Source: Candidatus Latescibacterota bacterium
GTDB lineage: Bacteria > Latescibacterota > UBA2968 > UBA8231
Assembly: GCA_965223905.1 (NCBI GenBank)
Contig: CBDCXV010000010.1
Span: 1,152,001 to 1,216,000 of the forward strand
Reading direction: 5' to 3'
DNA: 64,000 nucleotides
Both the position numbers and the translations under genes were made by a program. Shown piece by piece: positions 2,609-49,022 of the stretch; position 1 is the stretch's first letter, and every line of letters begins with the position of its first letter. The notes below the pieces were generated by a model. It saw only the letters and a program-made list of their open reading frames with translations, did no database searches and was not told the origin of the DNA.

Positions 2609-2643
2609 TGCCCATCGATTTCTCGCCATTACCCCGATCCACT

Positions 2644-4150: not shown

Positions 4151-4171
4151 CCGCGGCCTGCAGGGGCAGCC

Positions 4172-6246: not shown

Positions 6247-6250
6247 TCCC

Positions 6251-7087: not shown

Positions 7088-7096
7088 TGATTGCGT

Positions 7097-7336
7097 TCAA
7101 CTGACTGCGATTTCCCCCCAAGGTGGAGTGGCGACGGAACGGCGCTCCCCCTCGCGCACGTAAATCCTGGCGAGGACATCGAGGAGACCTGCTCGCCCGC
7201 CCGGCCCTGAGCTGTCACCGGCGGCCGACAGGATCGCGGGCAGGGCCTCGCCATCGGCCATGAGCAGTTCGATCTTCGTCCGCTCGGGGAACAACCGCAA
7301 GGTATCGCCAGGAGACATCGGTACGCCTTGCGACAA
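7097..7336 (-). CDS. Small hypothetical protein (79 aa) at the end of the ABC/TolC operon
   Basis: Fills the gap on the operon strand with a protein-like composition; no recognised motif. Confidence 0.4.
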   Translation of the reverse strand: MSQGVPMSPGDTLRLFPERTKIELLMADGEALPAILSAAGDSSGPGGRAGLLDVLARIYVREGERRSVATPPWGEIAVS

Positions 7337-7395
7337 CGCATCCCGGGCGAACGGGAATGCCGCCCCGACCCCGGACGGCCGCCGCCCTCGGACTC

Positions 7396-30446: not shown

Positions 30447-31888
30447 CCGCGGTCCCCGTACGGCCCCTGGTCGACCCTCGCGACAGCCGCCTGATCGCCG
30501 CGGTCTGCGCGCTCATGTGCGCCGTCGCCGTGGGGCCTGCTTTCTGGTTTGCCCATTACGCCCCGCTGTTCGCCGCGGCCCTGCTGACCGCCGGCGCCAT
30601 GCTGTTCTCGGTCAGGCGCTCGCTGGTCGTCCTGCTCGTGGCGACCGCGGTGATTCCGGGACCGGTGCTCGAGCTCCTGCGCATACCCCTCGGGTTCAAG
30701 CTGACCGAGGTGCTGTTGATCGCAACCCTGCTGTTCCTGGTGATCGACGTCGTCTGGGCGCGCCGGCTGCGGGTGACGACCACGGATGTCGACGGCCTCG
30801 TCGCCGCCTTTCTCGCCGCTGCCCTGCTGTCGGCCCTGTTGGGGGTGCATTACGGCAACGACGACAAGGAGAGCATCCTCCGCAATCTCCGCTATCCCCT
30901 CTATTACGTCGCCTTCTTCGCCGCCACCCAGGCCTTCTCGGCCCGAGACGGGGCGCGCCTGATCGCACCGGTCCTCATGCTCGTCGGTCCGGTGGTGGGA
31001 GCGACCTACATCTTCGAGTTTCTCGGGGCCATCGACCTGTCGGCCGGGGAGCGCTTCTTTCGCGTCGCGCGCCCGCAGGGGGTGGTGTTGCCGGTGGCCA
31101 TGCTGCTGACAGCCAACCTCTTCATCCACGACCCGCGGCGCTTCGGGCGCCTGCTGCCGGCGCTGGCGTTCATTCCCACCGGGCTGGCGTTCGTCCTTAC
31201 CGTGGGGCGCGGGATGTGGCTCGCCTTCGCGGTCGGCCTGGCGGCGACTTTGTGGCTCAGACACCGCGCTCTGCCGTCCGGGGCGCGCAGGGCATGGGGC
31301 GCCGTGGTTCTCGCGGTGGCGGTAGTCGCCGTTCTCGCCGCTTCGGCACTTGTGTTCCAGCGCATCACCGGCGCCGCCATCACCGCGCACGCAGTCGAAC
31401 GCTCGCGCACCTTCGTCGACTACACCCGCGACGTGCAGGTGCTGGGGCGCCTCATCGGCTATTCCGAGGTACTGCGGGCGATTGCCGAGCGCCCGCTTCT
31501 CGGCAGCGGCCAGGGCAGGACCGTGAGGCTTTACGGCTTCAATCCCGACCAGGGCCGGTTCGAAACCTGGGACTCCTGGACCGTCGACAGCCTGTTCCTG
31601 ACCCTGTGGTTGAAGATGGGTCTGCCCGGGCTGATCCTTTTTTCGCTGTTGTATCTCCGCTTGCTGCGAACTTCCTGGGACCGGTTTCACTCAGGGGCCG
31701 TTGCCGACCAGCGCGCCTTCGCCGCCGGGGCCTTCAGCGCCCTGGTGGCGATGGGGGTCCTCGGCATCGCCGACGGCTCGATGATAAACGGCCGCTTCGC
31801 CGTTCTGTTCGCTATTCTGTTCGCCGCGGTGGCGCGCGCCGCCCCGGCCACGACCCAGACCCCCGGATCAGCGCATGCAGCTTCTTGA
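30443..31888 (+). CDS. O-antigen ligase/Wzy-like polytopic membrane protein
   Basis: Multiple TM helices, T.GRGMW, R....E..RAI.ERPLLGSGQG, DSLFL.LWLKMGLPG. GTG start overlaps the upstream TGA. Confidence 0.75.
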   Translation: MTAVPVRPLVDPRDSRLIAAVCALMCAVAVGPAFWFAHYAPLFAAALLTAGAMLFSVRRSLVVLLVATAVIPGPVLELLRIPLGFKLTEVLLIATLLFLVIDVVWARRLRVTTTDVDGLVAAFLAAALLSALLGVHYGNDDKESILRNLRYPLYYVAFFAATQAFSARDGARLIAPVLMLVGPVVGATYIFEFLGAIDLSAGERFFRVARPQGVVLPVAMLLTANLFIHDPRRFGRLLPALAFIPTGLAFVLTVGRGMWLAFAVGLAATLWLRHRALPSGARRAWGAVVLAVAVVAVLAASALVFQRITGAAITAHAVERSRTFVDYTRDVQVLGRLIGYSEVLRAIAERPLLGSGQGRTVRLYGFNPDQGRFETWDSWTVDSLFLTLWLKMGLPGLILFSLLYLRLLRTSWDRFHSGAVADQRAFAAGAFSALVAMGVLGIADGSMINGRFAVLFAILFAAVARAAPATTQTPGSAHAAS

Positions 31889-33047
31889 GGAGATCGCCGC
31901 CAAGGGCAGCCGGCTCGTCGTCGGTCAGATGACGGGGACTTCCGTGGACGGCATCGACGCCGTGCTGGCCCGGATCTCCGCATCGGGGCCAGCCACCGGG
32001 TTCGAGCTGCTCGCCCACGCCACGAGCGACATTCCCCAAGCCCTTCGCGAGGGGCTGTTCGACCTGTTCAAGCCAGACGCGCCGGTCGACGATCTGCCGG
32101 GGCTGGACTTCGAGCTCGGCGAGGCGCTCGCCGCGGCCGCCCTCGAGGTAATCCGCAAGGCCGGCGCCGACCCCGCCGATGTCGACCTGATCGGCTCCCA
32201 CGGGCAGACGGTGCGCCATTTCCCCGGGGCCGGCACGCCCTCGACCCTGCAGATCGGGGAGCCCGCGGTGATCGCCCAGCGCACCGGCATCACCACTGTG
32301 GCCGACTTCCGGCCCGCGGACATCGCCCTGGGCGGCCAGGGGGCGCCGCTGGTGCCGCTGGTCGATCTCCTGCTCTTCGGCCATCCCGGGCGGGGGCGCC
32401 TGATGCTGAATATCGGCGGCATCGCCAACGTCACCATACTGCCCCCCGGGGCCGGAGTCGACGACGTCGCCGCCTTCGATCTCGGCCCCGGCAACATGCT
32501 CGTCGACGGCGCGGTCTCGTTACTGACCGGAGGCCGCGAGCGCTTCGACCGCGACGGCCGCCGCGCCGCCGCGGGCGCGGTCGACGAGGAGTGGCTGGCG
32601 CGCCTCCTCGGGCACGAGTTTCTGCACCGGCCGCCGCCGAAATCGACCGGCCGGGAGGAGTTCGGCGCCGAGTACCTGTTCGAGGTGATGGCTGGAAGCG
32701 GGCTAGGGGGAGACGCCCTGATCGCCACCCTGACGGCGTTCACCGCGGGCGCAATCGTTCAGGGGATCGGCCGTTTCGCCCTGGCCGGCGCCAGGATGGA
32801 GGAGCTCTGGGTCAGCGGCGGCGGCGTGCACAACCGGTGCCTGATGCAGCAGATCGCGCGCGGGCTGCCCGATCTTCGCGTGGCGCCCACGGACGAACTC
32901 GGGGTGCCGGCGGACGCCAAGGAAGCCCTCGCCTTTGCGGTGCTCGCCAACGAGACGCTGGCCGGCAACAGCGGCAACCTGCCGGCGGCGACCGGGGCGT
33001 CGCGCGCCGCGGTGCTGGGCAAGATCTGCCCCGGCCGAAGGGGATGA
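31875..33047 (+). CDS. anmK: Anhydro-N-acetylmuramic acid kinase
   Basis: G.MTGTSVDGIDA, IGSHGQT, TLQIGE, DFRPAD.ALGGQGAPLVP, NIGGIAN, PPKSTGRE.FG, KEALAFA. Confidence 0.95.
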   Translation: MQLLEEIAAKGSRLVVGQMTGTSVDGIDAVLARISASGPATGFELLAHATSDIPQALREGLFDLFKPDAPVDDLPGLDFELGEALAAAALEVIRKAGADPADVDLIGSHGQTVRHFPGAGTPSTLQIGEPAVIAQRTGITTVADFRPADIALGGQGAPLVPLVDLLLFGHPGRGRLMLNIGGIANVTILPPGAGVDDVAAFDLGPGNMLVDGAVSLLTGGRERFDRDGRRAAAGAVDEEWLARLLGHEFLHRPPPKSTGREEFGAEYLFEVMAGSGLGGDALIATLTAFTAGAIVQGIGRFALAGARMEELWVSGGGVHNRCLMQQIARGLPDLRVAPTDELGVPADAKEALAFAVLANETLAGNSGNLPAATGASRAAVLGKICPGRRG

Positions 33048-33153
33048 AGGGCCGGGTGCAAGCCGGCGGCCGGGGGGGTTAGGGTGTGGCGCCGGGCAAC
33101 CCCGATTCACAACTCTCTCACCACTCACACAAGACCAACGGGACCGCACGACC

Positions 33154-36066
33154 ATGAGCCATGACTTCGAACTGATCGCCGAGCGCGACATCGCCGAGCT
33201 CGACACCCGCGGCCGCCTCTACCGCCACCGCACCGGCGCGGAGCTGCTGTCGCTTTCGAACGACGACGAGAACAAGGTCTTCGGCATAACCTTCCGGACC
33301 CCGCCCGAGGATTCGACCGGCGTGGCCCACATCCTCGAGCACTCGGTGCTGTGCGGCTCGCGCAAGTACCCGGTCAAGGAGCCGTTCGTCGAGCTCCTCA
33401 AAGGTTCGCTGAAGACCTTCCTCAACGCCTTCACCTACCCCGACAAGACCTGCTATCCCGTCGCCAGCCAGAACCTCCAGGATTTCTACAACCTCATCGA
33501 CGTCTACCTCGACGCGGTCTTCCACCCCCGTCTGACGCCGCAGGTCCTGCAGCAGGAGGGCTGGCATTACGAGCTCGAGGAGGCCAGCGGCCCCCTGGTG
33601 TTCAAGGGGGTTGTGTTCAACGAGATGAAGGGGGCGAACTCCTCCCCCGACCGGGTGATGGCGGAGTACGTGCAGCACTCGCTGTTCCCCGACAACACCT
33701 ACGGCGTCGATTCCGGCGGCCACCCGCGCGAGATACCGGGCCTGACCTACGAGCAGTTCGAGAGCTTCCACCGCGACTTCTACCACCCGGCCAACGCGCG
33801 CATCTACTTCTACGGAGACGACCCGGTCGAGCGCCGCTTCGAGCTGCTCGAGGAGTACCTGGGCGAATACGAGGCGGCCGAGATCAGGTCGGCGGTCGCC
33901 TGGCAGCCCCCGTTCGCCGGGCCGCGGCGGGTCGAGCGCACCTACGCCGCGGGTGAGGAAGGGGGCGGGGACGGCCGCGCCAGGAGCATGGTCACCGTCA
34001 ACTGGCTTATGCACGAGGAAATCGATCCGGTGACCGGTCTCGGGTTGCAGATTCTGGACCACGTGCTGCTGGGGACCCCGGCATCGCCGTTGCGCAAGGC
34101 GCTGATCGAGTCAGGCCTCGGTGAAGATCTTTCCGGTATCGGCATGGAGACCGAGCTGCAGCAGTTCTTCTTCTCGATCGGCCTGAAGGGGGTCGCCGGC
34201 GAAGACGAGGAGCGGGTCGTCGAGTTGGTCCTGAAGACCCTGGAATCGCTGGCGGAGGAGGGCATCGCCAAGGAGACGGTGACCGCGGCGCTCAACACCT
34301 CGGAGTTCCGTCTGCGGGAGAACAACACCGGCTCCTACCCCCGCGGCCTGGCGCTGATGCTCAGGGCGCTGACGACGTGGCTCTACGACCGCGACCCGTT
34401 CGCGCCGCTCTCCTACGCCGGGCCCCTGGCCGAGGTCAGGGAGCGGGCCGAGGCCGGCGGCTGGTTCGAGCAGCTGATCAGGCGTCACCTGCTCGACAAC
34501 AGCCACTGCACCATGCTCTACCTGCGCGCCGACGAGGAGCAGGCCCGGCGCGAGGAGCAGGAGGAGGAGCAGCAGCTGAGCCGCTCGCGCGCGGGGATGA
34601 GCGCGGGTCAGCTGCGGGAGATCGCCGCGGACGCCGAAGAGCTCGCCCGGCGCCAGCAGCAACCGGACGACCCTGCCGATCTCGCCAGGCTGCCGCGCCT
34701 GACCCTGGGCGACCTGGAACCGGAGATCCGCACCCTGCCTCTGGACAGGGGGGAAGTCGCCGGCGCCCCCGCCCTGTTCCACGACCTCTTCACAAACGGC
34801 ATCGTCTACGCGGACGTCGGCTTCGAGGTACGCACCGTGCCGCAGCGGCTGCTCCCCTACCTGCCGCTGTTCGGGCGCGCCCTGCTCGAGATGGGCACCG
34901 AAAAGGATTCTTTCGTCCAGCTCGCGCAGCGCATCGGCTCGCGCACCGGCGGTATCTGGCCGCACACCCTGGTGTCGTCCAGGCGCGGCTCGGAAGATGC
35001 CCTGGCGCGGTTCTTTCTGCGCGCCAAGGCAATGGTCGGCCGGGTCGGCGACCTCGTCGACATCATGGGGGACATCCTCAACACGGTGAACCTCGACAAC
35101 CGGGACCGGTTCCTGCAGATGGCGCTCGAGGAGCGCGCCGAGCAGGAGGCCGGCCTGGTTCCCGGGGGGCACGGGGTCGTCGCCCTGCGCCTGCGGGCTC
35201 AGCTCGACGAGGCGGCGTGGGTGTCGGAGCAGATGGAAGGGGTCAGCTATCTCTTTTTCCTGCGGCAGCTGGTCGCCGATATCGAGAGCGACTGGCCCGG
35301 GGTGCTCGCCAGGCTGGAGGAGCTGCGCCGCCTGCTGGTGAACCGGCGCACCCTGCTGTGCAACGCCACCCTCCCGGACGCCGACCGCCCCGGGTTCGAG
35401 AGGCAGCTCGCCGGGCTGGTCGAGGCGCTGCCGGAAGCTCCCGCGGAAGAGGCGGCGTGGGAACCGGGCTACGACAGCAAGTGCGAGGGGCTGGTGATCC
35501 CGGCGCAGGTCAACTACGTCGGCAAGGCCGCGAACCTATACGAGCTCGGGTACGAGCTGCACGGCTCGGTCGCCGTGATCACGCGCTATCTCCGCAACAC
35601 CTGGCTGTGGGACCGCGTCCGCGTCCAGGGCGGCGCCTACGGGGCCTTCTGCTCATTCGATCACTTCTCGGGGATCCTCGCCTTCGCTTCGTACCGCGAC
35701 CCCAACCTCCGGGAGACCCTCGCCAACTTCGACGACTCGGGGCGCTTCCTGCGCGAGGTCGATCTCTCCTGGGAGGAGTTGACCAAGGCGATCATCGGGA
35801 CGATCGGCGACTTCGACGCCTACCAGCTTCCCGACGCCAAGGGCTACACCTCGATGGTGAGGGAGCTCACCGGCATGGATGACGGGTTTCGCCAGCGCAT
35901 GCGGGATGCGGTGCTGGCGACCACGGCCGCGGAGTTCCGGGACTTCGCCGACGTGCTCGAACGGGTGAGGCAGAGCGGCCGCATAGCGGTGCTGGGATCG
36001 CGCGACGCCCTGGAAGCGGCCAACGCCGACGGCGGGCAGGCCCTGGAGCTGGTGCCGGTGTTGTAG
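33154..36066 (+). CDS. M16C insulinase-family metallopeptidase (presequence protease-like)
   Basis: HILEHSVLCGSRKYPVKEPF (HxxEH), LNAFTYPDKTCYP, GVVFNEMKG, VRVQGGAYG, SYRDPN. Confidence 0.95.
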   Translation: MSHDFELIAERDIAELDTRGRLYRHRTGAELLSLSNDDENKVFGITFRTPPEDSTGVAHILEHSVLCGSRKYPVKEPFVELLKGSLKTFLNAFTYPDKTCYPVASQNLQDFYNLIDVYLDAVFHPRLTPQVLQQEGWHYELEEASGPLVFKGVVFNEMKGANSSPDRVMAEYVQHSLFPDNTYGVDSGGHPREIPGLTYEQFESFHRDFYHPANARIYFYGDDPVERRFELLEEYLGEYEAAEIRSAVAWQPPFAGPRRVERTYAAGEEGGGDGRARSMVTVNWLMHEEIDPVTGLGLQILDHVLLGTPASPLRKALIESGLGEDLSGIGMETELQQFFFSIGLKGVAGEDEERVVELVLKTLESLAEEGIAKETVTAALNTSEFRLRENNTGSYPRGLALMLRALTTWLYDRDPFAPLSYAGPLAEVRERAEAGGWFEQLIRRHLLDNSHCTMLYLRADEEQARREEQEEEQQLSRSRAGMSAGQLREIAADAEELARRQQQPDDPADLARLPRLTLGDLEPEIRTLPLDRGEVAGAPALFHDLFTNGIVYADVGFEVRTVPQRLLPYLPLFGRALLEMGTEKDSFVQLAQRIGSRTGGIWPHTLVSSRRGSEDALARFFLRAKAMVGRVGDLVDIMGDILNTVNLDNRDRFLQMALEERAEQEAGLVPGGHGVVALRLRAQLDEAAWVSEQMEGVSYLFFLRQLVADIESDWPGVLARLEELRRLLVNRRTLLCNATLPDADRPGFERQLAGLVEALPEAPAEEAAWEPGYDSKCEGLVIPAQVNYVGKAANLYELGYELHGSVAVITRYLRNTWLWDRVRVQGGAYGAFCSFDHFSGILAFASYRDPNLRETLANFDDSGRFLREVDLSWEELTKAIIGTIGDFDAYQLPDAKGYTSMVRELTGMDDGFRQRMRDAVLATTAAEFRDFADVLERVRQSGRIAVLGSRDALEAANADGGQALELVPVL

Positions 36067-36152
36067 GTTGTCTTTCGCTCCGACCGGGGATCTGGAGGGT
36101 TCGTTACGGTTCCCGGACTGCCAGGGTGATCCGCCTCGGACACCGTGGTATC

Positions 36153-37051
36153 TCATTCGGCAAGGCCGGACTTGATGCGGCCCCAGGAAACGGTTTCCGC
36201 AACAGTGTTGTCGTCAGGGCTCTTCACAAGAACGCCTCTGGCCCTCACCTCGGACGGCGACGGATCGAAGGTCTCATCCTCTCTCTGTCCGAACAAACCG
36301 AATGTGATATCCTCGCGGTCCGGGTCGGCGTCTGCTATCAAGAGCGAAAACAGGATCTCCTTGCCTGGGTAGAGGTCCGAGATTACGGATTCCTTCGGAT
36401 CGGCCCAGAGGAACCGATCGAACGGCGTTACGTAAAATTCGAGAACAGAAAAGATCGGCTGGCTGTCGACTATGCCGCCGCCGCCGTCGGCGTAGGGTAC
36501 CTGGTGAACCCAGGGCGCGGAGGCGCTCATGATGAACAGGGTTGCGTTGCTGTCATTGAGGTAGGTCCTTGCAAAGGCGGCGTAAAGCTGTGCTTCCTTC
36601 ATGTCCAGCGGTCCCCCCCGGGATGTTCGGGGTCGTTTGCGAGCACCCCATCGGCATCCATGTCGCCGTCCACGGAAAACCACAAGGCCCCATCGCCGAA
36701 GGGCAATGAAAAACCCTCGTCGCGTTCGTACGGGTTTTCGTGGAAATCGTGGACGAACTCCGCGGCCACGAACAGATGGTCGCCGGCATCGTGCCAGGCG
36801 AGCCAGACGCGGAAGTCGAATGACGATGGGTCGTATGATTCCCCTGGAAGGCCGGCGAAATCGAGGGGCGTCAACGTCGGCTCCCCGAGGGCGTCCGGCC
36901 AGTCCTCGACCTGACCGTCCTTGAGGTCGATGCGGGCCCGCATCTCGTCGGTCAGCTCGATGAACGGATACACCCGGTCCTGAAGCTGTGCCTCCGAAAG
37001 ATGGGCCGTCACCAGCAGGGGAATTGCAATTCCTGACGCCAGCGCTCGCAT
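36153..37051 (-). pseudogene. Secreted protein with a C-terminal SWGRIK motif; frameshift in a C7 tract at 36613-36619
   Basis: Signal MRALASGIAIPLLVTAHLSEA, DLKDG.VEDW..., continuing in another frame as PLDMKEAQ...TVAETVSWGRIKSGLAE. Adding one base to the tract restores a single ORF. Confidence 0.75.
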
Positions 37052-37152
37052 ACGGGAACTCCTTTTCCGCGGGCGGCTGGTGGTTGGTCCCAACATGCGC
37101 CGGGGTTTCTCGGCCGCAAACGAAATTGGGCGGCCCTGCAATGACAGCCAGG

Positions 37153-37444
37153 CTACTCCAACTCCAGGGAGGCCTTGATTCTTCCCCAGGTCACGTCCCT
37201 TGCGGCGGTGTCTTCCATACTCCCGCCTGCCCCGACAAGCAGTCCTCCGGACCAGGTGCTTGAATCCCACTTTTCCTGGGTAAAAGCAGTAGGAGAAAGG
37301 GCGTACGCGCTTTTCGGCTCGTTATATATGCTGGGTTCGATATCTCCAAGGACCATTCCGAAGCGAATGAACTTCCCCGGGAAAAGGTCGGAAACCTCGC
37401 TTTCTTCCGGATTTCCCAGACGAAGCGGTTGAAAGCAGTGACAT
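37153..37444 (-). pseudogene. 3' fragment of a second WGRIK-family gene interrupted by the composite element
   Basis: VTAFNRFVW/(fs)/PEESEVSDLFPGK...EDTAARDVTWGRIKASLELE aligns with the paralog VTPFDRFLWADPKESVISDLYPGK. Confidence 0.8.
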
Positions 37445-37622
37445 GAACCTGTCTCAAATTATCTGAGCCGTATCAGAACCCACTCTTTCCTTCGTCGGTC
37501 AGATTTCAGGGGCAGAGCTTGGAAACCTGGCTCAAAACGGTCTGAGCAGAACCCGATCCTCGTCATTTTCACAGTAAACCGATCAGGTTATAGGGGCTCA
37601 TTCCCGATTTCGGGACAGGTTC
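37445..37622. mobile_element. MITE copy 1 (178 bp)
   Basis: GAACCTGTCTCAAA...TTTCGGGACAGGTTC; internal TIR-like AACCTGGCTCAAAA at 37524. Confidence 0.85.
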
Positions 37623-37672
37623 GAATCAGCAGGAGGCGGTTGCCCGGTTGGAAGAGGCGGACGCCGAGGCCG

Positions 37673-38854
37673 TCACGAGGACCCCCGGGCGCGCCACCAA
37701 CCCACCAGCACCTGGGCGGCCGGCAGCATGAAGGCGGCGTCGAGGGGCAGGCGGAAGCGGATGTGGGCGAAGAACAGGGCGTGGATGGCCGTCATGCTCA
37801 GCGCCAGCGAAGCGATGAGCCAGAAGGCGGGCTGGCCGGCCAGGCGGCTGAGGCCCCACAGCCCCAGGATCAGCACCGGGCCGCAGGAGAGCAGGGAAAC
37901 GGCCTGGCGCAGGGGGGATTCCCCTACTGCCATCGGGTTCCAGAAGTGGGCGGTTTTCAGCAGGGCCAGCCCCAGGCAGCGCAGTGGATCGGCCAGGCAG
38001 CCCTGCAACACCAGGCGGGTGCCCAGAAGCTCCTTGTCGAAGGGGTGAGCGGCCGCCGCGGTAAATTCCGCGAACAGGGCCCGGTAGTCGGTCCCCTCTC
38101 GGTAAAGACCGGTTGCTTCCGGTTCGTGGCCGATGAACAGGTTGATGCCGATGTTGGACGAAACGGGAATGAAGCGGCCTTCGAGAAGGGCATTGCGCCA
38201 GGTCCACGGAGCGATGACGAGGACCGCGGCAGCGGCGATCAGGCCTGTGTGCAGGGCTCCTGGATGGCCGCTCCTTTTGCACCTGCGCCAGGCGTCCCAC
38301 AAAAGCAGAGGCGCCCAGGCCAGGACCACGGCTTTGCACAGGGCGCCCAAGCCGAGGAGGAGGCCGATTAACGCCGCGCCAGCTGGCCTGGGAGCCTCGC
38401 CCCAGCGCAGGGTGGCCCACAGCACCGCGGTGATGAGGAAAACCAGCAAGGTCTCGCTCATCAGGGCGCCGGTAAAGAAGATGAAGAGGGGGTACAAGGC
38501 GGCCAGGGCCGCGGCGACCAGCCCGGTTTGGGTCCCGCCCAGGCGCCGGCCGCAGCCGTAGAGCAGGGCGCAGGTGGCGGTGCCCAGAAGGGCCTGCCAC
38601 AGGCGGGCGGCGGCCGCATCGTGGCCGTGCAGTTGGTAGACCCCGGCCAGCAGCAGGGGATAGAGCGGCGGCCGGTAGGGCTTGCCGTCAGGATGCAGCA
38701 GGCCCGCCAGCCAGAAGCTGCGGGCCAAGCTGTCCCAATGGCGCTCGTCAGTGGACGCGGACAGATCGCAGCGAGTCAGGCCGAAGCCGGCGCGCAGGAC
38801 CAGGGCGAGGATCAGGATCGCCAGAAGGGGGCCGCGGCTCCGTTCAGTTGGCAC
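37673..38854 (-). CDS. GT39/ArnT/PMT-like polytopic glycosyltransferase (GT-C)
   Basis: DE..W..LA, YRPPLYPLLLA, R.WQALLG, LMSETL, PWTWRN, G.NLFIG, RFRLP. Probable GTG start at 38854; the upstream in-frame extension reads through a MITE remnant. Confidence 0.8.
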   Translation of the reverse strand: MPTERSRGPLLAILILALVLRAGFGLTRCDLSASTDERHWDSLARSFWLAGLLHPDGKPYRPPLYPLLLAGVYQLHGHDAAAARLWQALLGTATCALLYGCGRRLGGTQTGLVAAALAALYPLFIFFTGALMSETLLVFLITAVLWATLRWGEAPRPAGAALIGLLLGLGALCKAVVLAWAPLLLWDAWRRCKRSGHPGALHTGLIAAAAVLVIAPWTWRNALLEGRFIPVSSNIGINLFIGHEPEATGLYREGTDYRALFAEFTAAAAHPFDKELLGTRLVLQGCLADPLRCLGLALLKTAHFWNPMAVGESPLRQAVSLLSCGPVLILGLWGLSRLAGQPAFWLIASLALSMTAIHALFFAHIRFRLPLDAAFMLPAAQVLVGWWRARGSS

Positions 38855-38864
38855 GTTTCTTTCA

Positions 38865-38902
38865 CGATCAGCTATATTTTCGTATTCCCGATTTTGAGAC
38901 AG
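38865..38902. repeat. Degenerate third copy of the MITE right end
   Basis: CGATCAG...ATTCCCGATTTTGAGACAG matches the 3' ends of both MITE copies. Confidence 0.65.
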
Positions 38903-39060
38903 TGTCCCGTCATTCGTCACTGTCAACTCTCCCACAAAAGATCCACTGCCGTCCCGGCACTTCAGCGCGCGACCGAATGGAATCGGAGAGATTCGTTGAG
39001 GTAGCGCCTGTCTGCGTGCGACGCACAGGCAGGCGACACCGGATTGGGCCCGCAGCCCGG

Positions 39061-42000
39061 ATGGAGGCAGCGCGAAACCTGCTCTTCAACCGGCTCCTAA
39101 TCCTTCTCATCCTGTCGCTCCCGGGTCCGGCCCGATCCGACCTTTTCCTCAACGAACTCCTGGCCTTGAACGTGACTGCCCACGCCGACGCCCGGGGCCA
39201 GTACGAGGATTGGATTGAAATCTACAACTCCGGGGACGCCGCGGTCGATCTGGCCCGTTATTCCATGATCGACGACTGGCCCGACAAAACCCCCTGGCGG
39301 ATCCCGGCCGGCCATGCCGACCGAACCACTGTACCGCCCCGGGGCTACCTCCTCCTGTACGCCGACGGCGAGCCTTCCGCTGGAGCCGACCACCTCCCTT
39401 TCCGCCTCAGTAAGAACGGAGAGCTCGTCGTCCTGATCGCCCCGGACGGCGCCACCCTTGTGGACAGCGTCTCCTTCCCCGTCCAGTTGCGCGATGTTTC
39501 CTACGGCCGTCCCTCCGGCCGCATCCGCCCGTGGGTCTATTTCCCCGAGCCCACCCCGGGGGACGCCAACGGCAGAGGTTGGGAAACCTTTGTTCCGCCC
39601 CCTGTCATCGAGGCGGAAAGCGGCCTGTTCGACGACGGCCCGGCCGTCTCCGTGCTGGCCGCGCGCCCGGGAGATCTGGTGCGCTATACCCTGGACGGAT
39701 CCGATCCGACCGCGTCCTCGGCCCGCTATGAAAAACCGATTGAGATCGCCCTGACGACCGTGCTCAAGGCCCGTTCCTTTGCCGAAGGCGCCTTGCCGAG
39801 CGCTGTGGTCGCCCGGGTCTTTCTGGTCGACGTCCGCCACACCCTGCCGATCCTGACCGTGCTCACCGATCCGGCCAATCTGCACGACCCCGACAGGGGA
39901 ATCCTCACAAACGACCAGCCCGGACGCGCCTGGGAGCGCTTTGTCGAGCTGGCCTTTTTCGAGGGGGGACGACTCGGATTCCAAGTGCCGGCCGGCCTGC
40001 GCCTGCAGGGCAATACCGGACCGAAGGAGTACCGGAAGAAATCCTTTCGCGCCTTTTTCCGCGGCGGTTACGGCGCCGCCGACCTGGAGTACTCTCTGTA
40101 CCCCAGGGACCGCGTAGACCAGTTCAACCGTCTGGTCCTGCGCTCGGGCTATGACGACAGTCTGGAACCGACCGAAAAATCGACCAACCGCGGGGGCACC
40201 CTGCTGCACGACCCACTGGCCGCGGAAATGTGGGGCCGCATCGGCGGCCTGACCCCGCAGAGCCGCTTTGCCGTGCTCTACCTCAATGCCGGTTTCACCG
40301 GCATTTACGACCTCAAGCAGAATATCGACGAGGATTTTGTCCAGGACCATCTCGGGTACGGACGACGTCGACCTGGTGCGCACCCGCTGGGACTCGACCG
40401 AGCTGGTCCACGGCGACAAGGAGAAGTGGGGACGAGATGATCCGCTTCTTCGCCGGCCACAGCCTTGTCGACGACGAGCTCGCCGCGGCCGGACGCCTGC
40501 TCGACCTCGACAACTTCATCGACCTGCAGGCTCTGGTACACGCCATTCACTACCGCAATTGGGCGTACGGGGTATGGGCATTCAGGGAAAAGGAGGCGGA
40601 CGGCAGATGGCAGTGGACGATCTGGGACGCGGACCGAACCTTTGACAATGTCGACTGGGACGGCTTCACGACCTTGTTCAACCCGCTCAACCGCGAACTG
40701 GACAGCCTGCCTCACCAAGCGCCTGCTCGACAACGAATCCTTCCGGATCAAGTACATCAACCGCTTTGCCGATCTGTTCAATACCACCTTTTCGGGCCCG
40801 GAAGTCCTAAGCCTCGTCGATTCGCTGGCGCGGATCATAGAGCCGGAAATCCCGGGGGAAATCGACCGCTGGGGCAACACCGTGGAGAAGTGGGAGGAGA
40901 ACGTCGAACTCCTCCGCACCTTTGCCGCCCAACGCCCCCGGGCCGTGCGCCGGCAAATGGAGGAGTTCTTCCAGCTCGAAGGGCAGGTTCAATTGACTGT
41001 CGATGTCGAAGGGGAAGGGGAGGTGCAGGTAAATACCGCACGACCGGGCGAGTTCCCCTGGTCGGGGGTGTACTTCCGCAATATTCCGCTGCCGGTGCGG
41101 GCCCGCGCGGCGCCGGGACACCGCTTTGCCGGTTGGTCCGATCCGCGACTACCGGCCCGTCCCGCCGTCACCTTGACTCCGACCGGGGACCGCGTCCTCA
41201 AAGCCTTCTTCACCCCCGGGGAGGAGCCCGTCATCGCCGCGGAGCTCATCGCCCCGCAAAGCGTCCCCGCGGGCCGGCATTTTCCCTTTGTCGTGCGCCT
41301 GCGCAACCCGGACGGCAGTATTGAGCCGACTGAGCAGACCCCGATGCAGGTCCGTTTTTCAGGCGCGCGCGCCGATACCGTCATCGCCATCAAACGCGGC
41401 GCCGGAACGGGCGTGGCGCGGATGGGAGAAAGCGGTTTCACCCTCGAGGTGGAAAACGAGGCCGTGGCGACCGCTTCCAGGGATATAGCGCTGTCGACTC
41501 GCCCGGTGCAGGTCCAGGCCGGCAGCTTGCCCGCCGGCGAGGTGATCTGGGACGCGGCGGTCGATCATCTGGTCAGCGGCGATATCGCGGTCCCGGAAGA
41601 CACCCATCTCATCCTGGAGGCGGGCGCCTGGGTCGCCGTGGGGGCGCGGGTCAACTTCATCATCGACGGCCGCGTCTCGGTCCGGGGCACGGCCGCGGCC
41701 CCGGTGGTCCTCACCGCGGCCGACTGGCCCGAGCCCTGGGGGGGGATGGAATTCACCGAGGCCGAGGCCGACTTCCAGTACTGCATGGTGCTCAACGGCG
41801 GCGGCGACGACACCCGAGGGCTGTGGCACACCGGCCGGCAGCACATCTTTTTCGGCAAGGTCAATTCCACCTTCCATTTCGACCAGTGCTTCTACCTCAA
41901 CTCCCCGGGCAAGGTCTTCGGCACCTCCAATTCCGTCGCCTCGATCTCCAACTCCGTCTCCTCCTTCGTTCACCACGGCGGCGAATTTCTCCTGACCCTG

Positions 42001-43494
42001 CTGTCCTACCGCGACAGCCATTTCATGAACCTGCCCAACGACGACGGCCTGTACGAGCGCGACATCGACACCGACGGCCTGCACATCGATTTAGTCAGCG
42101 CTCGCTTCCCCCAGTACTCGGTAATCGACAACTGCTACTTTGTCACCGGCAAGGACGACGGCATCGACCACCGCGGCGCCCGCCTGCAGGTGTCAAACTG
42201 CTGGATCGAGGACTTTGCCCACGAGGGGATTGCCGCCTCTGGAGGGGATACTCTGCGCATTTTCAATACCCTGGTCCTCAACAACGACCAGGGCTTTGAA
42301 GCCGGGTACACAGAACGAGAATTCGACAGCGGGCCGCACGTTTTCATCGATCACTCGGTGGCCGTGGGCAATAATGTGGGCCTGCGCATTGGCGACGACT
42401 ACGACTGGGACGTCTGGACCTATAAGGACCGCATGACCGTGACCAATACCGTGCTCTACGACAACGCCGACAATATCCTCAACTTCGTCCACATCCTCGA
42501 CGGTCCCCTGGCCGGGGCCCTCGACATCTCGCATTCGCTGACCAACGACCCCGAATACGACGGGCGCAACGGCAATATCGCCGGGATACCGCGCTTCGAT
42601 GCCCGTTTCTATCTGCGGCCCGATTCCCCCGGCATTGCCGCCGGCCGGCACGGGGTGCCCCTGGGCCGGGGCGATCCCACCGCCTTGGAGCCGGTTGGCG
42701 TGGTGATCAACGAGGTGATGTACTCGGCGCCGGACAGCCTGGATACCGGCGACTGGATTGAGCTGTACAACCTGCTCGACAGCGACCAGGACCTGTCCGG
42801 CTGGCTGCTCAAGGACGACGACGACGACCACGTTTTCACGCTGCCCCCGGGCACACTCATCCCCGCGGGCGGGTACTGGGTGGTAAGCGCCGACACCGCC
42901 GCCTTCAGCGCCCACCACCCGGAGGTGGACAACCTGGTGGGCGAGATCCCCTTTGGCTTCGGCCGCAACGACCAGGTCCGCCTGTACTTCCCCTCGGGCG
43001 AAGTGGCCGACAGCCTGGCCTACAGGGAGATTGCCCCCTGGCCGGTGGCCGCGGCTCAGGGCTTCAGCCTGCGCTTGCTGGCCCCCCGCCTGGACAATGC
43101 GCGACCGGAGAACTGGGGCGCCTCTCACCAGTTAGGGGGCAGCCCCGGACGCCCCAACGATGACTCGGTGAGCGCGGTGCTCAATGCGGCCGCTGTCGCC
43201 GGGTCGCCGCGCCGGTTCGCCCTGGCGCAGAATTTTCCCAATCCCTTCAACCCCTTCACCCGCATCGAGTACACCCTGCCCCGTGCGGGCCGGGTCAGCC
43301 TTAGCGTCTTCAATCTGCTGGGCCAGAAAGTGGTCGATCTCGTTGACGACGAGCCCCAGGCCGCGGGCCGGTACGGCCTCGCCCTGAATGCCGGTCCCTG
43401 GTCGGGCGGCGTCTATTTCTACCGGCTCCGCCTCGACGATGGGACTGGCCTTCCCCCCCTGCAGCAGACCCGGAAAATGGTCCTGGCGAAGTAG
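39061..43494 (+). CDS. Large secreted multidomain protein (~1476 aa when joined): lamin-tail domain, Fn3-associated, CotH kinase, beta-helix, second lamin-tail domain, T9SS/FlgD-type CTD; three +1 frameshifts (~40360, ~40430, ~40710)
   Basis: LNE..A.N...DWIEIYN; VRYTLDGSDPT; G.RLQGN....KKSFR; LVLR; WD.D..F; INRFADL.NT.F; VINEVMY..DWIELYN; QNFPNPFNP.T.I.Y.LP...N.LGQ.V...GVYFYRL...RKM.L.K. Confidence 0.8.
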
Positions 43495-43511
43495 GGCGGC
43501 GCCCCAGGCTC

Positions 43512-45272
43512 ATGGCACTGTTGGCATTGGCCAAAGGTTTTTTCGAAACCGCTTCCCGAAAGCTCCCGTGTCCCCGTTCCGCTCCGTTCTCGCTGCTCGC
43601 CCTGCTGCCGACGGCCGTCCACGCCGTCGACTTCACCTCCTCCAACCTGCCCATTGTCGTCATCGACACCCGCGGCCAGACCATTCCCGACGAGCCCAAG
43701 ATCGACGCCTGGATGGGACTGATCGACAACGGTCCCGGGCGGCGCAACAGCCTGGGCGACCCCTTTGACGGCAGTGAGGGGCCCATCGCCATAGAGACGC
43801 GGGGCGCCAGCACCCAGGGGTTTCCCAAGAAATCCTACTCCCTTGAAACGCGGCAGCCCGACGGCGAAAACCGCAACGTCTCCCTCCTGGGGCTGCCGGT
43901 GGAGAACGACTGGATCCTCTACGGCCCCTACAGCGACAAATCGCTCCTGCGCAATGCCCTGGTCTACTGGATGGCCGCACAGATGGGGGCCTACGCCAGC
44001 CGCAGCCGCTTCTGCGAACTGGTCGTCAACCGCGATTACCGGGGGGTGTACGTGCTGCTGGAAAAGATCAAGCGCGACCGCAACCGGGTCGCCATCGCCC
44101 GGCTCGATCCCGACGAGCTGGCCGGCGACGATCTGACAGGCGGCTATATCATCCGGGTCGACCGCTATGTCGAGGGAGTCGACCGCGGCTGGTACTCATC
44201 CTACGCCTTCAGGGAAAACCGCCTGTTCTACCAGTTCTACTACCCGTCCGCGGACGACATAAAACCGGAGCAGGAAGCCTATATCCGCACCTACATCGAC
44301 AGCCTGGAGACCGCCCTGGCCCACTCCCGGGGGGACTATGACCGCTTTATCGATGCGGCATCCTTTGCCGACTATCTCATTGTCAACGAGGTGGTCAAAA
44401 ACGTTGACGCCTACCGTCTGAGCCTGTTCATGCACAAGGACAAGGACAGGGACAGCGCCGGCGGCAAGCTGACGATGGGGCCTGTGTGGGATTTCAACCT
44501 GGCCCTGGGCAATGTCAACTACAACGTCCATCCCAGCCTGGAGCTGCAAAGGCCCACGACCCACCGCTTGCAAATCGCCAACGCGGCCACCTGGTTTTCC
44601 GTTCCCTTCTGGTTCTGGTGGCGGCGCCTGCTCCAGGACGAGGCCTTCCTCGATACGCTGAAGGAGCGTTGGCACACTCATCGGAGAGGGGCTTTGCGAG
44701 GAGACAGACTGACGGCCCACGTAGACAGCCTGGCCCGAAGCCTGCAAGAGGCCCAGGCGCGCAACTTTGAGCGCTGGCCCGTTCTGGGCCAGTACATCTT
44801 GCCCAACGATTTCATCGGCCAGACCTACGCCGAGGAGGTCGCCTATCTCAAACGATGGTTGGACGAGCGGCTCAGCTATCTCGACGACTACTTTATGGCC
44901 GAGGCGCGCCGGGTGGCCGATGTGGCGGCCGATGATTTATTGCTCTTGAAAGAGCCCGATACGGCCGTTGCCCCATCCCCCCTGGGCCATCCCGCCCTCT
45001 TGGCCTTGTCCGCAAGTTTCCCCAACCCCTTCAACGGCAGCGCCGCCATCCGGTTTACCCTGCCCGGGGCTGTCGACATGGACCTGTCCATCTACAGTAT
45101 GGCCGGGCAACGAGTCGCGACGCTGGCCAGCGGGCTCCACCCCGGGGGAACGCATACTGTGCGCTGGCACGGCCGGGATGACGAGGGCGGCGAAGTTGCT
45201 TCGGGGGTGTACCTGTACCAGCTGAGGATGGGGAGTTTGTCGGTGGCGCGGAAACTCGCTCTGGTGCGCTGA
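43512..45272 (+). CDS. Secreted CotH-family kinase with a FlgD-Ig/T9SS-type CTD
   Basis: SNLPIVVIDT, IETRGAS....PKKSY..E, DWILYGPYSDKSLLRN, Y.GVY.L.EKIK, N.DAYRLS, GPVWDFNLALGN, FPNPFN...W.GRD..G..VASGVY.Y. Confidence 0.9.
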   Translation: MALLALAKGFFETASRKLPCPRSAPFSLLALLPTAVHAVDFTSSNLPIVVIDTRGQTIPDEPKIDAWMGLIDNGPGRRNSLGDPFDGSEGPIAIETRGASTQGFPKKSYSLETRQPDGENRNVSLLGLPVENDWILYGPYSDKSLLRNALVYWMAAQMGAYASRSRFCELVVNRDYRGVYVLLEKIKRDRNRVAIARLDPDELAGDDLTGGYIIRVDRYVEGVDRGWYSSYAFRENRLFYQFYYPSADDIKPEQEAYIRTYIDSLETALAHSRGDYDRFIDAASFADYLIVNEVVKNVDAYRLSLFMHKDKDRDSAGGKLTMGPVWDFNLALGNVNYNVHPSLELQRPTTHRLQIANAATWFSVPFWFWWRRLLQDEAFLDTLKERWHTHRRGALRGDRLTAHVDSLARSLQEAQARNFERWPVLGQYILPNDFIGQTYAEEVAYLKRWLDERLSYLDDYFMAEARRVADVAADDLLLLKEPDTAVAPSPLGHPALLALSASFPNPFNGSAAIRFTLPGAVDMDLSIYSMAGQRVATLASGLHPGGTHTVRWHGRDDEGGEVASGVYLYQLRMGSLSVARKLALVR

Positions 45273-45443
45273 TCCTATCTCAAATTGTCTGCGAAGTTAT
45301 CAGAATCCACTGTTCGTCGGTCAGATTCCATGGGCAGAGCGTGGAAACCTGTCTCAAAACGGTCTAAGCAGAACGGATCCTCGTCATTTCCACAGTAAAC
45401 TGACCAAAATATATGGGCTCATTCTCGATTTTGAGACAGGTTC
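45271..45443. mobile_element. MITE copy 2 (173 bp)
   Basis: GATCCTATCTCAAA...TTTTGAGACAGGTTC; colinear with copy 1; internal AACCTGTCTCAAAA at 45346. Confidence 0.85.
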
Positions 45444-45676
45444 ATAAACTCGACTGCACAGATTGCCGGCTGCTCGCTCACGCAGCCTTCCCCGCCATCC
45501 GCATAGGGCGGATCCAGCCAGTCGAATACCGTCCCATCCCTGAGATCCAGTCGCGCAACGTCCTCGTCGGAAAGTTCCGTTAAGGGATACACGCGGTCCG
45601 TACTTGAGGGCTGCCGGGGTCGGGTTTGCATCAGTACGGCAGATGTCGCCATGGCGACTGTGAGCAAGCTCTTCAT
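45444..45676 (-). pseudogene. 5' fragment of the WGRIK-family gene split by the composite element
   Basis: MKSLL...DRVYPLTELSDE..ARLDLRDG.V.DW..PYADGG.G.V..QP.I..VEF matches the paralog at 36153-37051 and ends exactly at the TIR. Confidence 0.8.
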
Positions 45677-45786
45677 TGTTCCATTGCTTTCTTGAAAATG
45701 GATCGCGGCGGACCTGCAAGGGAGCGCGGTCCATACCATTGTTCATTCCCTGATCGTCCGATCTGCAGGGCGTCTCGATCCGGACA

Positions 45787-46539
45787 CTATAGAGCGGACT
45801 CGGCGCGCGCGATGAAATCCCTGGCACCGGCCGCCAGCCAGGCGCCCACCGAGGTCAGGACCACCCGCGCGCCGCGGCCGACGTAGTCCTCCACCTGGTC
45901 GTTGGAGGTGGTGAAGCCGGCGACCCGCCCGGCGGCGTTGATGCGCGCGAGGGCGTCGGTGATCGTATCCTGGACCTCCGGATGCGCGGTGTCGGCGTTA
46001 TGCCCCATCGACTGGGCGAGGTCCGTGGGGGCTACGAAGAAGACGTCGATGTGATCGACCGTGAGGATCTCGTCGAGATTCCCGATCGCCTTGATGTCCT
46101 CGATCAGCACGATGAGCAGCGACTGTTCGTTGGCCTTCTCGAAGAAGTTCTCGACCCCGAATCCCTGACGACTGGTGTACATGCCGCGCTTGCCGGCCGG
46201 CGCGAACTTGCCGCCGTCGACGACGTTCTGCGCCTCCTCCCTGGTGTCGACGTGGGGTACGCATATGCCGGTGGCGCCGCAATCCAGGGTGCGGTAGATC
46301 AGCGCCTGGTCGTTCCTGTTGACGCGCACCACCGAGGTCATCCCCCAGATGTCGCAGGCGCGCGTCAGGTCGCCGAGCCGGGAGGCGTCGGCGGAGCCGT
46401 GTTCCCCCTCGAGCCAGACGCCGTCGAAGCCGTTGGGGCCGAAGGCGTCGATGCCGTCGGGGTCGGAGATGCCGCTGACGATGCAGGCGACGCCCCCGTC
46501 GGCGAGCTTCTGCTTGATCCGGTTGGGTCTGATGTTCAT
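45787..46539 (-). CDS. HpcH/HpaI-family aldolase
   Basis: FDGVWLEGEHG, VVRV, LDCGA.GI.VPHV, G.RG, IEDI.AI.NLDEI, FVAPTDLAQSMG. Confidence 0.9.
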   Translation of the reverse strand: MNIRPNRIKQKLADGGVACIVSGISDPDGIDAFGPNGFDGVWLEGEHGSADASRLGDLTRACDIWGMTSVVRVNRNDQALIYRTLDCGATGICVPHVDTREEAQNVVDGGKFAPAGKRGMYTSRQGFGVENFFEKANEQSLLIVLIEDIKAIGNLDEILTVDHIDVFFVAPTDLAQSMGHNADTAHPEVQDTITDALARINAAGRVAGFTTSNDQVEDYVGRGARVVLTSVGAWLAAGARDFIARAESAL

Positions 46540-47675: not shown

Positions 47676-48638
47676 TCAACAGATCGTCCCTCGATGGTGC
47701 CTGATGCCGTTTCCCGGCGGGGGATCGCCGACCCAGCGGCTGTCGATCGGCTCGGAGGCGAGCTGGTAGCGCGAGTCGGTGGAGATCCGCAGGCGGTCGG
47801 TCTGATTGTCGTGGGCGGCGTGCATGGTGTACATCGTGAAGACCAGCAGGTCCCCCATCCTGTAGTCGGCGGTCAGCCAGCGGCCTCCGAGGTCGGCGCG
47901 GGTGTCGATCGGGTCCTTGCCGTAGGGGCCGAGGGTGGTCCACCGAATGCGGTTCCTCTCTTCGCCCGTCAGCTCGCGATTCTCCGCCTTCGCCGCGCCG
48001 ATGATGGCCGCGGCCTCCCCGGAATTCTCGCAGTACAGGTTGACGTCGGCGCAGCCGTAGGTCGCCTTCAGCTCCTCCTGCAGGTGCGAGCCTTCGAGCA
48101 GCATCAGCCCGCCCATTTCAAACGGGACGTCGTCGAGGGGGGTCCAGGAGGTGTACAGGTTCCTGGTGCCGCGCGACATGAAGACGATGTCGCAGTGCGG
48201 ATCGGTGGCGATGGTCTCCCCCTTCGTCTTGGCCCGGAACCAGGTGTGGTCGAAGTGCGCCACCTGCCCGCCCAGGAAGAACTCGTAGAACTCGATCATG
48301 CGGCCCGAGTAGAGCAGCTTGTCGATCTCGGGGTTGTCGACCGGCACGTCCTGGGCCGAGCGCATCTTCGTTTCGGGCTTGAATCGCCCTTCCTCGAGAG
48401 GGCTTCCCTCCTCGAAGACCCCCGTTGCGGCGATCCGCCTCAAGGCGCTCATGCGCGCCGCGGCGACCTCGTCGCGGTCGAGGTGCCCGGGAAGGAAGAG
48501 ATAGCCGTCGGCCGCCATGCGCCGGTGCAGCTCTTCGCGGTTCCCGACAACGTCGATGGAACTGCGCAGGGGGCCGACCCCCGTCATGTCGAGTGGACGG
48601 CCGCTGAAGGTGAACTGGGGAAGTGTTTCCGTCGTCAT
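47676..48638 (-). CDS. Phytanoyl-CoA dioxygenase (PhyH) family protein
   Basis: DGYLFLPG, W.R, PHCD.VFM.RG (HxD), WTPL.DV..E.GGL, GD.LVF...T.H, R.S.D.RYQ. The ORF is open upstream to 49022. Confidence 0.88.
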   Translation of the reverse strand: MTTETLPQFTFSGRPLDMTGVGPLRSSIDVVGNREELHRRMAADGYLFLPGHLDRDEVAAARMSALRRIAATGVFEEGSPLEEGRFKPETKMRSAQDVPVDNPEIDKLLYSGRMIEFYEFFLGGQVAHFDHTWFRAKTKGETIATDPHCDIVFMSRGTRNLYTSWTPLDDVPFEMGGLMLLEGSHLQEELKATYGCADVNLYCENSGEAAAIIGAAKAENRELTGEERNRIRWTTLGPYGKDPIDTRADLGGRWLTADYRMGDLLVFTMYTMHAAHDNQTDRLRISTDSRYQLASEPIDSRWVGDPPPGNGIRHHRGTIC

Positions 48639-48815
48639 CGGGTCCCGTTTCGATTGCGAAGGTGAGGACGAAGTACGGAAAGATAGGCCGGTGTCCGGGG
48701 CACTGCGAGCCGTGCCCCGGGAAGGATTCCGGTCTTCAGGGCTCTCGGGGGCTGCAGGCAGGACAGGCGGCAAGTGCCCTGCCGTCAAGGGTTCCCGGGG
48801 AGCCTGGCAGACCGG

Positions 48816-49022
48816 GTCCGGAACGTGGACGATCAGCTCGTCGACGCTCTCGCACCCCAGGGCGCGGTAGATGCGATCGAGGGTATCGAGGTCGATGCGC
48901 TTGATCTCGCCCCTGACCAGGCGGTTCACCTGCTGGCGCGGCATCCCGATTCTGCGGGCGAGCTCGGACTGCGTGGGCGCTCCCTTCCGCTCCAGGAGCT
49001 CCTTCAGGCGGAACTTCATCAT
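48816..49022 (-). CDS. XRE/Cro-C1 (HTH_26) transcriptional regulator domain, in frame with phyH with no stop between them
   Basis: RLKELL....TQSELARRIG..RQQVNRL..GEIKRIDLDTLDRI..ALGC....LI; GGAGG RBS upstream. Confidence 0.8.

Follow-up and report, generated by a model that had tools for sequence, protein, structure and literature searches.

The locus described here is a 7,999-bp unit at 37445..45443 of a 64,000-nucleotide stretch of DNA (the window), bounded by two MITE copies in direct orientation. Between them lie three genes, a GT-C (PMT_2/GT39-like) glycosyltransferase (GT) and two CotH genes (Table 1). CotH-1 comprises, in order, a signal-peptide-like start, an LTD, an Fn3-associated domain, a CotH kinase, a beta-helix, a second LTD, and a C-terminal sorting-type domain. 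The reading of CotH-1 as a broken gene was rejected, as the break exists in the assembly only: the three inserted bases that cause it are missing from all three well-covered public runs (3/3). The 15 read variants among those listed, 7 synonymous and 8 non-synonymous, were uninformative on selection. No transposase domain was found in the cargo open reading frames (ORFs) by Pfam scan, and tblastn with the transposase of a resident IS5-family element gave no match to the unit, which agrees with the transposase-free unit described in an earlier note. From the domain families we infer that the cargo genes are cell-surface modifiers; together they would probably provide the cell envelope with glycosylation that depends on a lipid carrier and with a secreted kinase activity.

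Table 1. Features of the unit and its insertion site (positions in the window)
Feature	Position	Strand	Description
Target gene, 3' half	37153..37444	-	82% nucleotide identity to intact G001 homologue
Left AT of 2-bp target duplication	37443..37444	.	2-bp rule taken from resident IS (7/7 copies)
Left MITE	37445..37622	+	178 bp; perfect outer TIR 37445-37458; inner TIR 37609-37622 with 2 mismatches; internal TIR-like site at 37523
wzy/O-antigen-ligase-like 5' remnant	37623..37676	-	about 18 codons, one indel; starts on GT stop codon, cut by left MITE
GT-C (PMT_2/GT39-like) glycosyltransferase	37673..38854	-	393 aa, intact
Probable third MITE right end, decayed	38866..38906	+	MITE orientation; boundary of GT and CotH modules
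28-bp palindromic repeat upstream of CotH-1	39006..39033	.	single copy in genome
CotH-1	39061..43494	+	1,476 aa as one ORF without three assembly insertions
CotH-2	43512..45272	+	586 aa; CotH kinase and FlgD-Ig/C-terminal sorting-type domain
Right MITE	45271..45443	+	173 bp; inner TIR with 2 mismatches; perfect outer TIR 45430-45443; internal TIR-like site at 45345
Right AT of 2-bp target duplication	45444..45445	.	outside outer end
Target gene, 5' half	45446..45676	-	417-bp internal deletion and small indels

The two MITE copies, put at about 175 bp and described as diverged in the earlier note, are identical in 148 of 179 alignment columns (83%), and their longest identical run is 15 bases. 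Their outer ends, GAACCTGTCTCAAA and TTTGAGACAGGTTC, form an exact 14-bp inverted repeat, and each inner end carries 2 mismatches in 14 positions, as had been claimed. The contrast between perfect outer and decayed inner TIRs is only suggestive (0/28 versus 4/28 mismatched positions; Fisher p = 0.056). Both copies fit the MITE size range of 50 to 500 bp, have TIRs, and are non-coding. There was no Rfam match in either copy and no sigma-70 promoter or terminator match within or near them, and folding as DNA indicated no stable stem-loop (z = -1.27 and -1.71). The dispersed multicopy distribution, with a duplication for each copy, that is used to define MITEs was not observed: blastn and nhmmer recovered only these 2 copies from the 7.9-Mb genome, to which one probable remnant can be added. 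The MITE was found in 0 of 60 relatives, in none of 167 genomes of the phylum apart from one 35-bp partial match (E = 0.004) that was not counted, and in none of two metagenome pattern scans, one viral scan, and plasmids. Likewise, no second copy of the composite or repeat of its cargo was found elsewhere.

The flanks outside the outer ends are two halves of one gene, confirming that the element interrupts a gene. This gene has no Pfam family and belongs to an expanded family; its intact homologue in sister species G001 is collinear and reads straight through the insertion site. With 82-88% identity and a location elsewhere in its genome, this homologue can only stand in for the empty site. 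The syntenic neighbourhood in both congeners (2/2) contains neither MITE nor cargo, and no strong cargo match was present in either congener genome. Left and right of the island, identity to congener G002 stays at 87-97%, and this comparison gave no hint of a foreign recombination tract around it. Neither an exact empty allele (37444 joined to 45446) nor a single-MITE allele at the target site was found in four public runs.

Public sequencing runs also provided contigs across the junctions. On the left, the contigs came from three runs of three studies (X2, 36943-39033, 0 differences; X4, 36943-39031; X5, 37157-39031), and on the right from two (X2, 45023-46233, 0 differences; X4, 45023-45623); run X1 (share 0.07) gave scattered single-read pieces only and was left out. 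The contigs listed bridge each side separately, none of them extending across the whole 8 kb. Misassembly, which the earlier note had tied to unspanned junctions, is therefore not the explanation for either junction.

A search for an autonomous IS with related ends, as suggested earlier, identified seven full copies of an 853-855-bp IS5-family (IS427-like) element in the genome, three of which are 100% identical. Its TIR matches the MITE ends in 13 of 14 bases within IRs of about 16 bp; at TIR position 7, the outer MITE ends have G versus A in all resident copies. The transposase scores 217 bits against NF033580 (cut-off 110) and contains DUF4096 and DDE_Tnp_1 domains. The IS1182 family was rejected (26 bits against a model cut-off of 270), so that of the loose resemblance to IS5/IS1182-type termini noted before, the IS5 part stands and the IS1182 part does not. 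IS427-group elements are 832-865 bp long with IRs of 13-21 bp and a DR of 2 bp in all members but one listed in Table 2 of the accessible text of PMC3281130, and the resident IS fits in length (about 830-865 bp), short IRs, and DR. It differs in having a single ORF of about 259 aa (6/7 copies) instead of the two frameshifted ORFs that this source gives for the group, ISPha1 excepted. Among named plasmid elements, the nearest relative (labelled ISDds9 family) shares only 55% identity with it, and autonomous elements that agree in ends and duplication length also occur in related genomes.

All seven resident copies are flanked by a 2-bp TSD of variable sequence, AT in two of them, with no preference for TA. 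This supports the AT outside both outer ends, previously advanced as a possible 2-bp TSD, as a duplication, and it names the likely transposase: the unit was most likely driven by an IS5-type enzyme, for which the resident IS is the candidate source, judging from the shared ends and duplication length. Compared with the G001 homologue, reading AT as the duplication calls for one additional 1-bp deletion in the neighbouring A-run, and two bases would match at random about 7% of the time. Considered singly, neither MITE is flanked by a duplication of its own (left, AT/GA; right, CT/AT); an independent TSD for each copy, which the earlier note would have taken as a refutation, was not seen.

The same TIR is carried by at least 120 short elements of other phyla in GTDB, which share only the TIR with the MITE. 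Among the 121 listed (the overlapping L108 and L109 counted twice, and one locus without flank left out), 86 have a 2-bp TSD, TA in 67 and AT in 6. As 35 of the 121 unrelated MITEs listed lack a 2-bp TSD, missing individual TSDs are weak evidence by themselves. Extra TIR-like ends within 3 kb of flank were present at 14 of 80 loci, with no clear second composite among them. On C11, two TIR-like sites lie 2.3 kb from each other and have no duplication.

Three features inside the unit bear on how it was built. First, the short wzy-like remnant next to the left MITE came out on top when a profile of 20 wzy N-termini was run over the 13,041 ten-residue stretches of the cargo, and it looks most like the wzy of genome G016; a DNA shuffle test was weak when taken alone (149/5000). 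In other genera of this family, the orthologue of the cargo GT sits between a methyltransferase gene and wzy. Second, the segment at the boundary of the GT and CotH modules is a probable third MITE end, at modest statistical strength: its score of 35 was reached by 0 of 200 cargo shuffles, and nhmmer gave E = 0.082 in the window and no significance genome-wide. Third, the right MITE begins with the final two bases of the CotH-2 stop codon, and CotH-2 homologues at three of three loci terminate in CGC TAG, a TA-type target, right where the right MITE starts. Together, the third end, the wzy remnant, and the MITE in the stop codon point to a stepwise assembly from two sources.

The cargo proteins were also compared with their relatives. 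Amino acid identity to genus g3 is 75-79% for CotH, 55% for the GT, and 51-66% for core genes; this unequal divergence of the two modules counts in favour of the composite reading given below. The nearest GT homologues are P0002 and P0003 (74-77% identity), close homologues are labelled Candidatus Latescibacteria, and a search for viral relatives of the GT gave none. In the GT tree, the cargo GT falls in an unresolved seven-member clade, and no donor lineage is claimed from this tree or from the wzy tree, a quick version.

Considering these data, we regard a non-autonomous composite transposon, with an IS5-family (IS427-type) MITE at each end and moved in trans, as the likely identity of the unit; we infer its mobility from sequence. 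Its assembly would have taken place in a donor from the same family, where a first MITE entered wzy about 18 codons in and a second landed directly upstream of the adjacent GT gene, which was thereby freed. The resulting MITE-GT unit would then have come to adjoin the two CotH genes, and the TAG stop of CotH-2 would have taken up one more MITE. Pairing of the two outermost ends by an IS5 DDE transposase provided in trans would have brought all 8 kb into the accessory gene, duplicating AT. The target gene would then have decayed, with the cargo staying intact. Of the earlier proposal that a MITE vehicle had moved surface genes as one unit, the one-unit move with a transposase in trans is retained; a vehicle in recurrent use would go beyond the single insertion seen, with neither a second copy nor repeated cargo found.

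An unlikely alternative is entry in two steps, in which a lone MITE inserted into the target gene with duplication of AT and a circle of the cargo plus one MITE, released from a composite in a donor, then recombined into it. Such a route yields chimeric MITEs in direct orientation, whose outer ends derive from the MITE already in place and whose inner ends derive from the one brought in, and so predicts the observed orientation, the matching perfect outer ends, and the decayed inner ends. However, the genome holds no free MITE copy, the four runs showed no single-MITE allele, and since no run of identical bases in the copies exceeds 15, they would recombine poorly unless they diverged entirely afterwards. 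This route would, moreover, still require a MITE-bounded composite in the donor.

Independent MITE insertions that bracketed resident genes by chance would fit the 17% divergence of the copies and could meet the 2-bp match by coincidence, but are very improbable, being largely refuted by outer flanks that form one gene; the site without cargo in both congeners and the missing duplication of each MITE also speak against them. Repeat-induced misassembly, which the single-base errors in CotH-1 and the separate coverage of the two sides might suggest, is extremely unlikely given the bridged junctions and MITE copies too diverged, at 83% identity, to collapse.

The preferred reading, a MITE composite moved in trans, can be compared with described systems as far as the accessible parts of the sources go. 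In TIME-COMP and IMU elements, pairs of Tn3-family MITEs in direct or inverted orientation surround transposase-free cargo and are mobilised in trans (PMC4133298, PMC13367494). As in our unit, the target duplication lies outside the outermost ends. TIME-COMPs differ in having 38-bp Tn3 ends and 5-6-bp duplications, versus 14-bp IS5-type ends and 2 bp here, and the MITE copies of TIME-COMP1/2 are identical or differ by 1 nt; TIME-COMP and IMU elements carry resistance genes, whereas our unit carries envelope cargo on a 2.2-Mb contig with chromosomal-type genes (PMC4133298, PMC13367494). With 14-bp IRs and a 2-bp DR, the unit may work in an analogous way but is not a Tn3-derived TIME-COMP. In Acinetobacter, class 1 integrons flanked by 439-bp MITEs and a MITE-297 pair likewise provide non-Tn3 MITEs in a composite-like arrangement; those MITEs are identical and larger, and the cases differ further in their plasmid location, resistance cargo, end sequence, and host phylum (PMC6382973, PMC10969869). 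MITEPsy1, a 100-nt multicopy IS5-type MITE shown to be mobile, makes a 4-bp duplication (CTAG/YTAA); the MITEs here share with it their short length, non-coding nature, IS5-type ends, and presumed mobilisation in trans, and the accessible text of PMC3189936 describes no composite of it. No IS427-type MITE composite was found in the openly accessible literature searched.

The unit is thus a known kind of gene-moving unit whose history is partly traceable, and it leaves the concept unchanged. Described MITE composites are mostly Tn3-type or from Acinetobacter and carry plasmid-borne resistance genes; new here are IS5/IS427-type ends with a 2-bp duplication, envelope cargo, and an uncultured lineage, along with scars of assembly kept in the unit, namely the probable third MITE end, the 18-codon wzy remnant, and the right MITE in a stop codon. 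Transposase-free composites of this kind are missed by annotation pipelines, and since a candidate helper transposase is present, the mechanism is directly testable. A broader reading, rather doubtful when its parts are taken jointly, is that IS427-type MITEs serve as a serial gene-capture system in the family, in which one insertion after another cuts genes from the operons of different donors and chains them into a transposase-free unit that keeps growing. Were this so, a glycosyltransferase lost from the genus would have come back to the same envelope operon, no more than 7 kb from its ancestral position, and would have been kept because it restored a surface modification that had been lost. 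As at least 120 elements in several other phyla bear such ends, composites of this type could then be a widespread, unannotated route for the exchange of surface genes.

Two diverged MITEs, arranged as direct repeats with 148 of 179 alignment columns identical, bound the 7,999-bp composite on contig C10 of this 7.9-Mb, 11-contig genome. The cargo has a GC content of 65%, compared with 50% and 45% in the left and right MITEs. Comparison of the ends confirmed an exact 14-bp inverted repeat at the outer ends, whereas each inner end carries two mismatches, a suggestive contrast (p = 0.056). Each MITE also contains an internal TIR-like site in direct repeat (37523 in the left, 45345 in the right); against shuffles, this internal duplication was significant for the left MITE (0/2000) and weak for the right (23/2000), and tandem TIRs are also seen at GTDB loci L057 and L083. 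The final ~100 bp of each MITE resemble a shorter element that has inverted ends of its own. A genome-wide search returned no MITE copy beyond this pair; 60 relatives and the phylum-genome, metagenome, viral and plasmid collections searched likewise yielded none.

Features of the composite, its surroundings and related elements
Feature	Position or loci	Description
Left MITE	37445-37622	direct orientation relative to right MITE
Right MITE	45271-45443	direct orientation relative to left MITE
Third MITE end (probable)	38866-38906	directly upstream of GT start, where homologues begin
28-bp palindrome	39006-39033	just upstream of CotH-1; single-copy in this genome
Conserved family operon	29760-36066	methyltransferase, (GT-C), wzy-like, anmK, preP; GT-C slot empty in home genus g1 and family genome G016
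IS copies in this genome	C1:946772, C10:862798, 1970298, 2039939, 2041072, 2047219, C11:2038165	
Same-TIR MITE class	L054-L173 (at least 120 loci)	Nitrospirota, Desulfobacterales, Gammaproteobacteria, Patescibacteria

The genome-wide TIR scan did find an IS with near-identical ends (1 of 14 positions differs), present as seven full copies of 853-855 bp. Its 259-aa DDE transposase scores above the cut-off of the NCBIfam IS5 model but below that of the IS1182 model; thus, of the IS5/IS1182 resemblance proposed in the earlier note, the IS5 part held and the IS1182 part fell. The copies form two subtypes (93% identical); six have an intact ORF, three are identical, and three cluster in an 8.1-kb stretch of C10. 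This single-ORF element is apparently active. All seven are flanked by 2-bp duplications (GG, AC, AT, CC, AT, TA, CG), with no target-sequence preference, and the element matches the size, IR and DR in the tabulated entries for the IS427 group in PMC3281130. Of 75 other family genomes, 12 carry the same IS end, among them congener G002 (47 matches) and G020 (4 matches), and it extends to other genera; among the matches listed, its G variant is found in the composite only. A GTDB scan identified at least 120 loci with 169-198-bp elements (a size range set by the search pattern) bearing the same TIR. These form many sequence families, the largest with at least 50 members, and TA is their usual duplication, frequently within CTA/TAG or TTA/TAA. 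Among 121 elements scored, which share nothing but the TIR with our pair, 86 had a 2-bp duplication (67 TA, 6 AT). An AT/AT match alone has a ~7% chance; because resident IS copies and most of the scored GTDB elements duplicate 2 bp, the ambiguous AT at 37443-37444 and 45444-45445 was accepted as a target duplication.

The composite splits a single gene, whose halves form its two flanks; this gene belongs to an expanded family (61 tblastn segments in the genome) without a Pfam match. At another locus, congener G001 carries an intact 311-aa homologue, 82-88% identical in DNA, that reads continuously across the junction, bearing out the earlier claim of an interrupted gene. Once one AT is discounted, the only difference from this homologue at the junction is an A absent from an A-run in the window. 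Elsewhere, the window copy shows a 417-bp deletion along with further small indels; these are real, since contigs of public run X2 match the assembly there. The adjoining gene (36153-37090) is a paralogue from this family, frameshifted near 36650, where X2 contigs again match; the island therefore holds two pseudogenes. At the syntenic site, preP and the aldolase gene are immediate neighbours in G002 (window 36131 to 45783) and G001 has a stub only (36416 to 45744), placing the composite in a decaying 9.6-kb accessory island, whose arrival its insertion could predate. At 47676-49022, a Cro/C1-type HTH and a PhyH dioxygenase domain share one open frame (448 aa); G001 has an ORF of 450 aa that starts identically, so this fusion or read-through may be real.

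All or part of the stretch is present in seven public runs from four studies, six with ~90% or more of sampled words; junctions and alleles were checked in four of the seven. Both ends of the left MITE are bridged by contigs of X2, X4 and X5, and both ends of the right by contigs of X2 and X4; X5 has depth at the right MITE, with no bridging piece among those listed. X2 junction pieces show 0 differences from the assembly, and X2 may be the source sample. Among the records listed, none spans all 8 kb. The assembly carries three single-base insertions in CotH-1 (40360, 40428, 40710) that are missing in all three well-covered runs; without them, CotH-1 is one 1,476-aa ORF, and other frameshifts in the genome may also be assembly errors. 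The search for an empty-site allele was negative, with no empty or single-MITE joint seen in the runs checked; one X5 contig of low depth links 36163 with 45787, resembling the G002 arrangement. The decayed target and the lack of an empty allele suggest an old insertion that has become fixed in the samples examined.

Mechanistically, an IS5 transposase acting in trans would pair the outermost ends and insert the 8-kb unit, which we regard as the probable course of events. The same ends are predicted if a cargo circle recombined into a single MITE already inserted, but the genome has no free MITE and the runs checked no single-MITE allele, making this route improbable. Independent MITE insertions and, with the junctions bridged, misassembly are largely excluded.

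The cargo encodes a GT-C glycosyltransferase (GT) and a pair of CotH-kinase proteins that bear C-terminal sorting-type domains, families from which its function is predicted; close homologues carry the source label Candidatus Latescibacteria. GT orthologues occur in 18 of 75 family genomes, with none in the two congeners. A wzy-like gene lies directly downstream in 17 of these 18 loci, and GT sits between methyltransferase and wzy in 15. In this genome, G002 and G016, methyltransferase is joined straight to wzy, and the G001 junction sequence looks alike. Right after the cargo GT stop, the left MITE truncates a wzy start of 18 codons. Scored against a profile built from 20 wzy N-termini, this start ranks first among 13,041 windows, and it is closest to that of G016; the left MITE would therefore have inserted first into a donor's wzy. 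The composite lies ~1.4 kb beyond the end of the operon where the genus lacks GT and ~7 kb from GT's native slot, by rough estimate a 0.3% coincidence in 7.9 Mb. A local hop in a close donor, then island exchange, is a possible account of this nearness, but the flanks show no sign of a foreign tract.

The probable third MITE end reached a score matched by 0/200 shuffles (nhmmer E 0.082). In another genus, g3, an adjacent pair shares 80-85% DNA identity with the cargo's CotH genes; the g3 pair lacks MITE ends and is not linked to GT. Amino-acid identity to g3 is 75-79% for CotH, much higher than the 55% of GT and the 51-66% of core genes. In g3, each of the three CotH-2 copies terminates in CGC TAG; similarity halts at that stop codon. 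The right MITE begins at the CotH-2 stop, supplying GA of TGA, which would fit its TA-type insertion there, then decay. From the wzy remnant, probable third end, CotH and GT divergence from g3 and CotH-2 stop, we infer that at least three MITE insertions assembled the cargo out of two sources. A second CotH-2 copy with the same downstream genes lies ~880 kb away in G020 (L046, L048), which suggests a duplicated or mobile CotH block in its genus. The palindrome occurs in 18 genomes of other families, in up to 45 copies, and is absent from 75 other family genomes. Its summed contig depth of 2,500-8,200 in three runs points to a very high frequency among co-occurring organisms. The palindrome may record the CotH module's passage through another lineage or itself be mobile.

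Transposition is demonstrated for the MITE-bounded TIME-COMP/IMU composites (PMC4133298, PMC13367494), Acinetobacter MITE pairs are established as such composites (PMC6382973, PMC10969869), and IS5-type MITEs are already known (PMC3189936). Our composite operates like both TIME-COMP and the Acinetobacter pairs, yet is no TIME-COMP. An IS427-type MITE composite was not found in the literature searched, which excluded subscription journals, ISfinder and supplements. Overall, it is well supported that the element is real and a new form of the established MITE-bounded composite.
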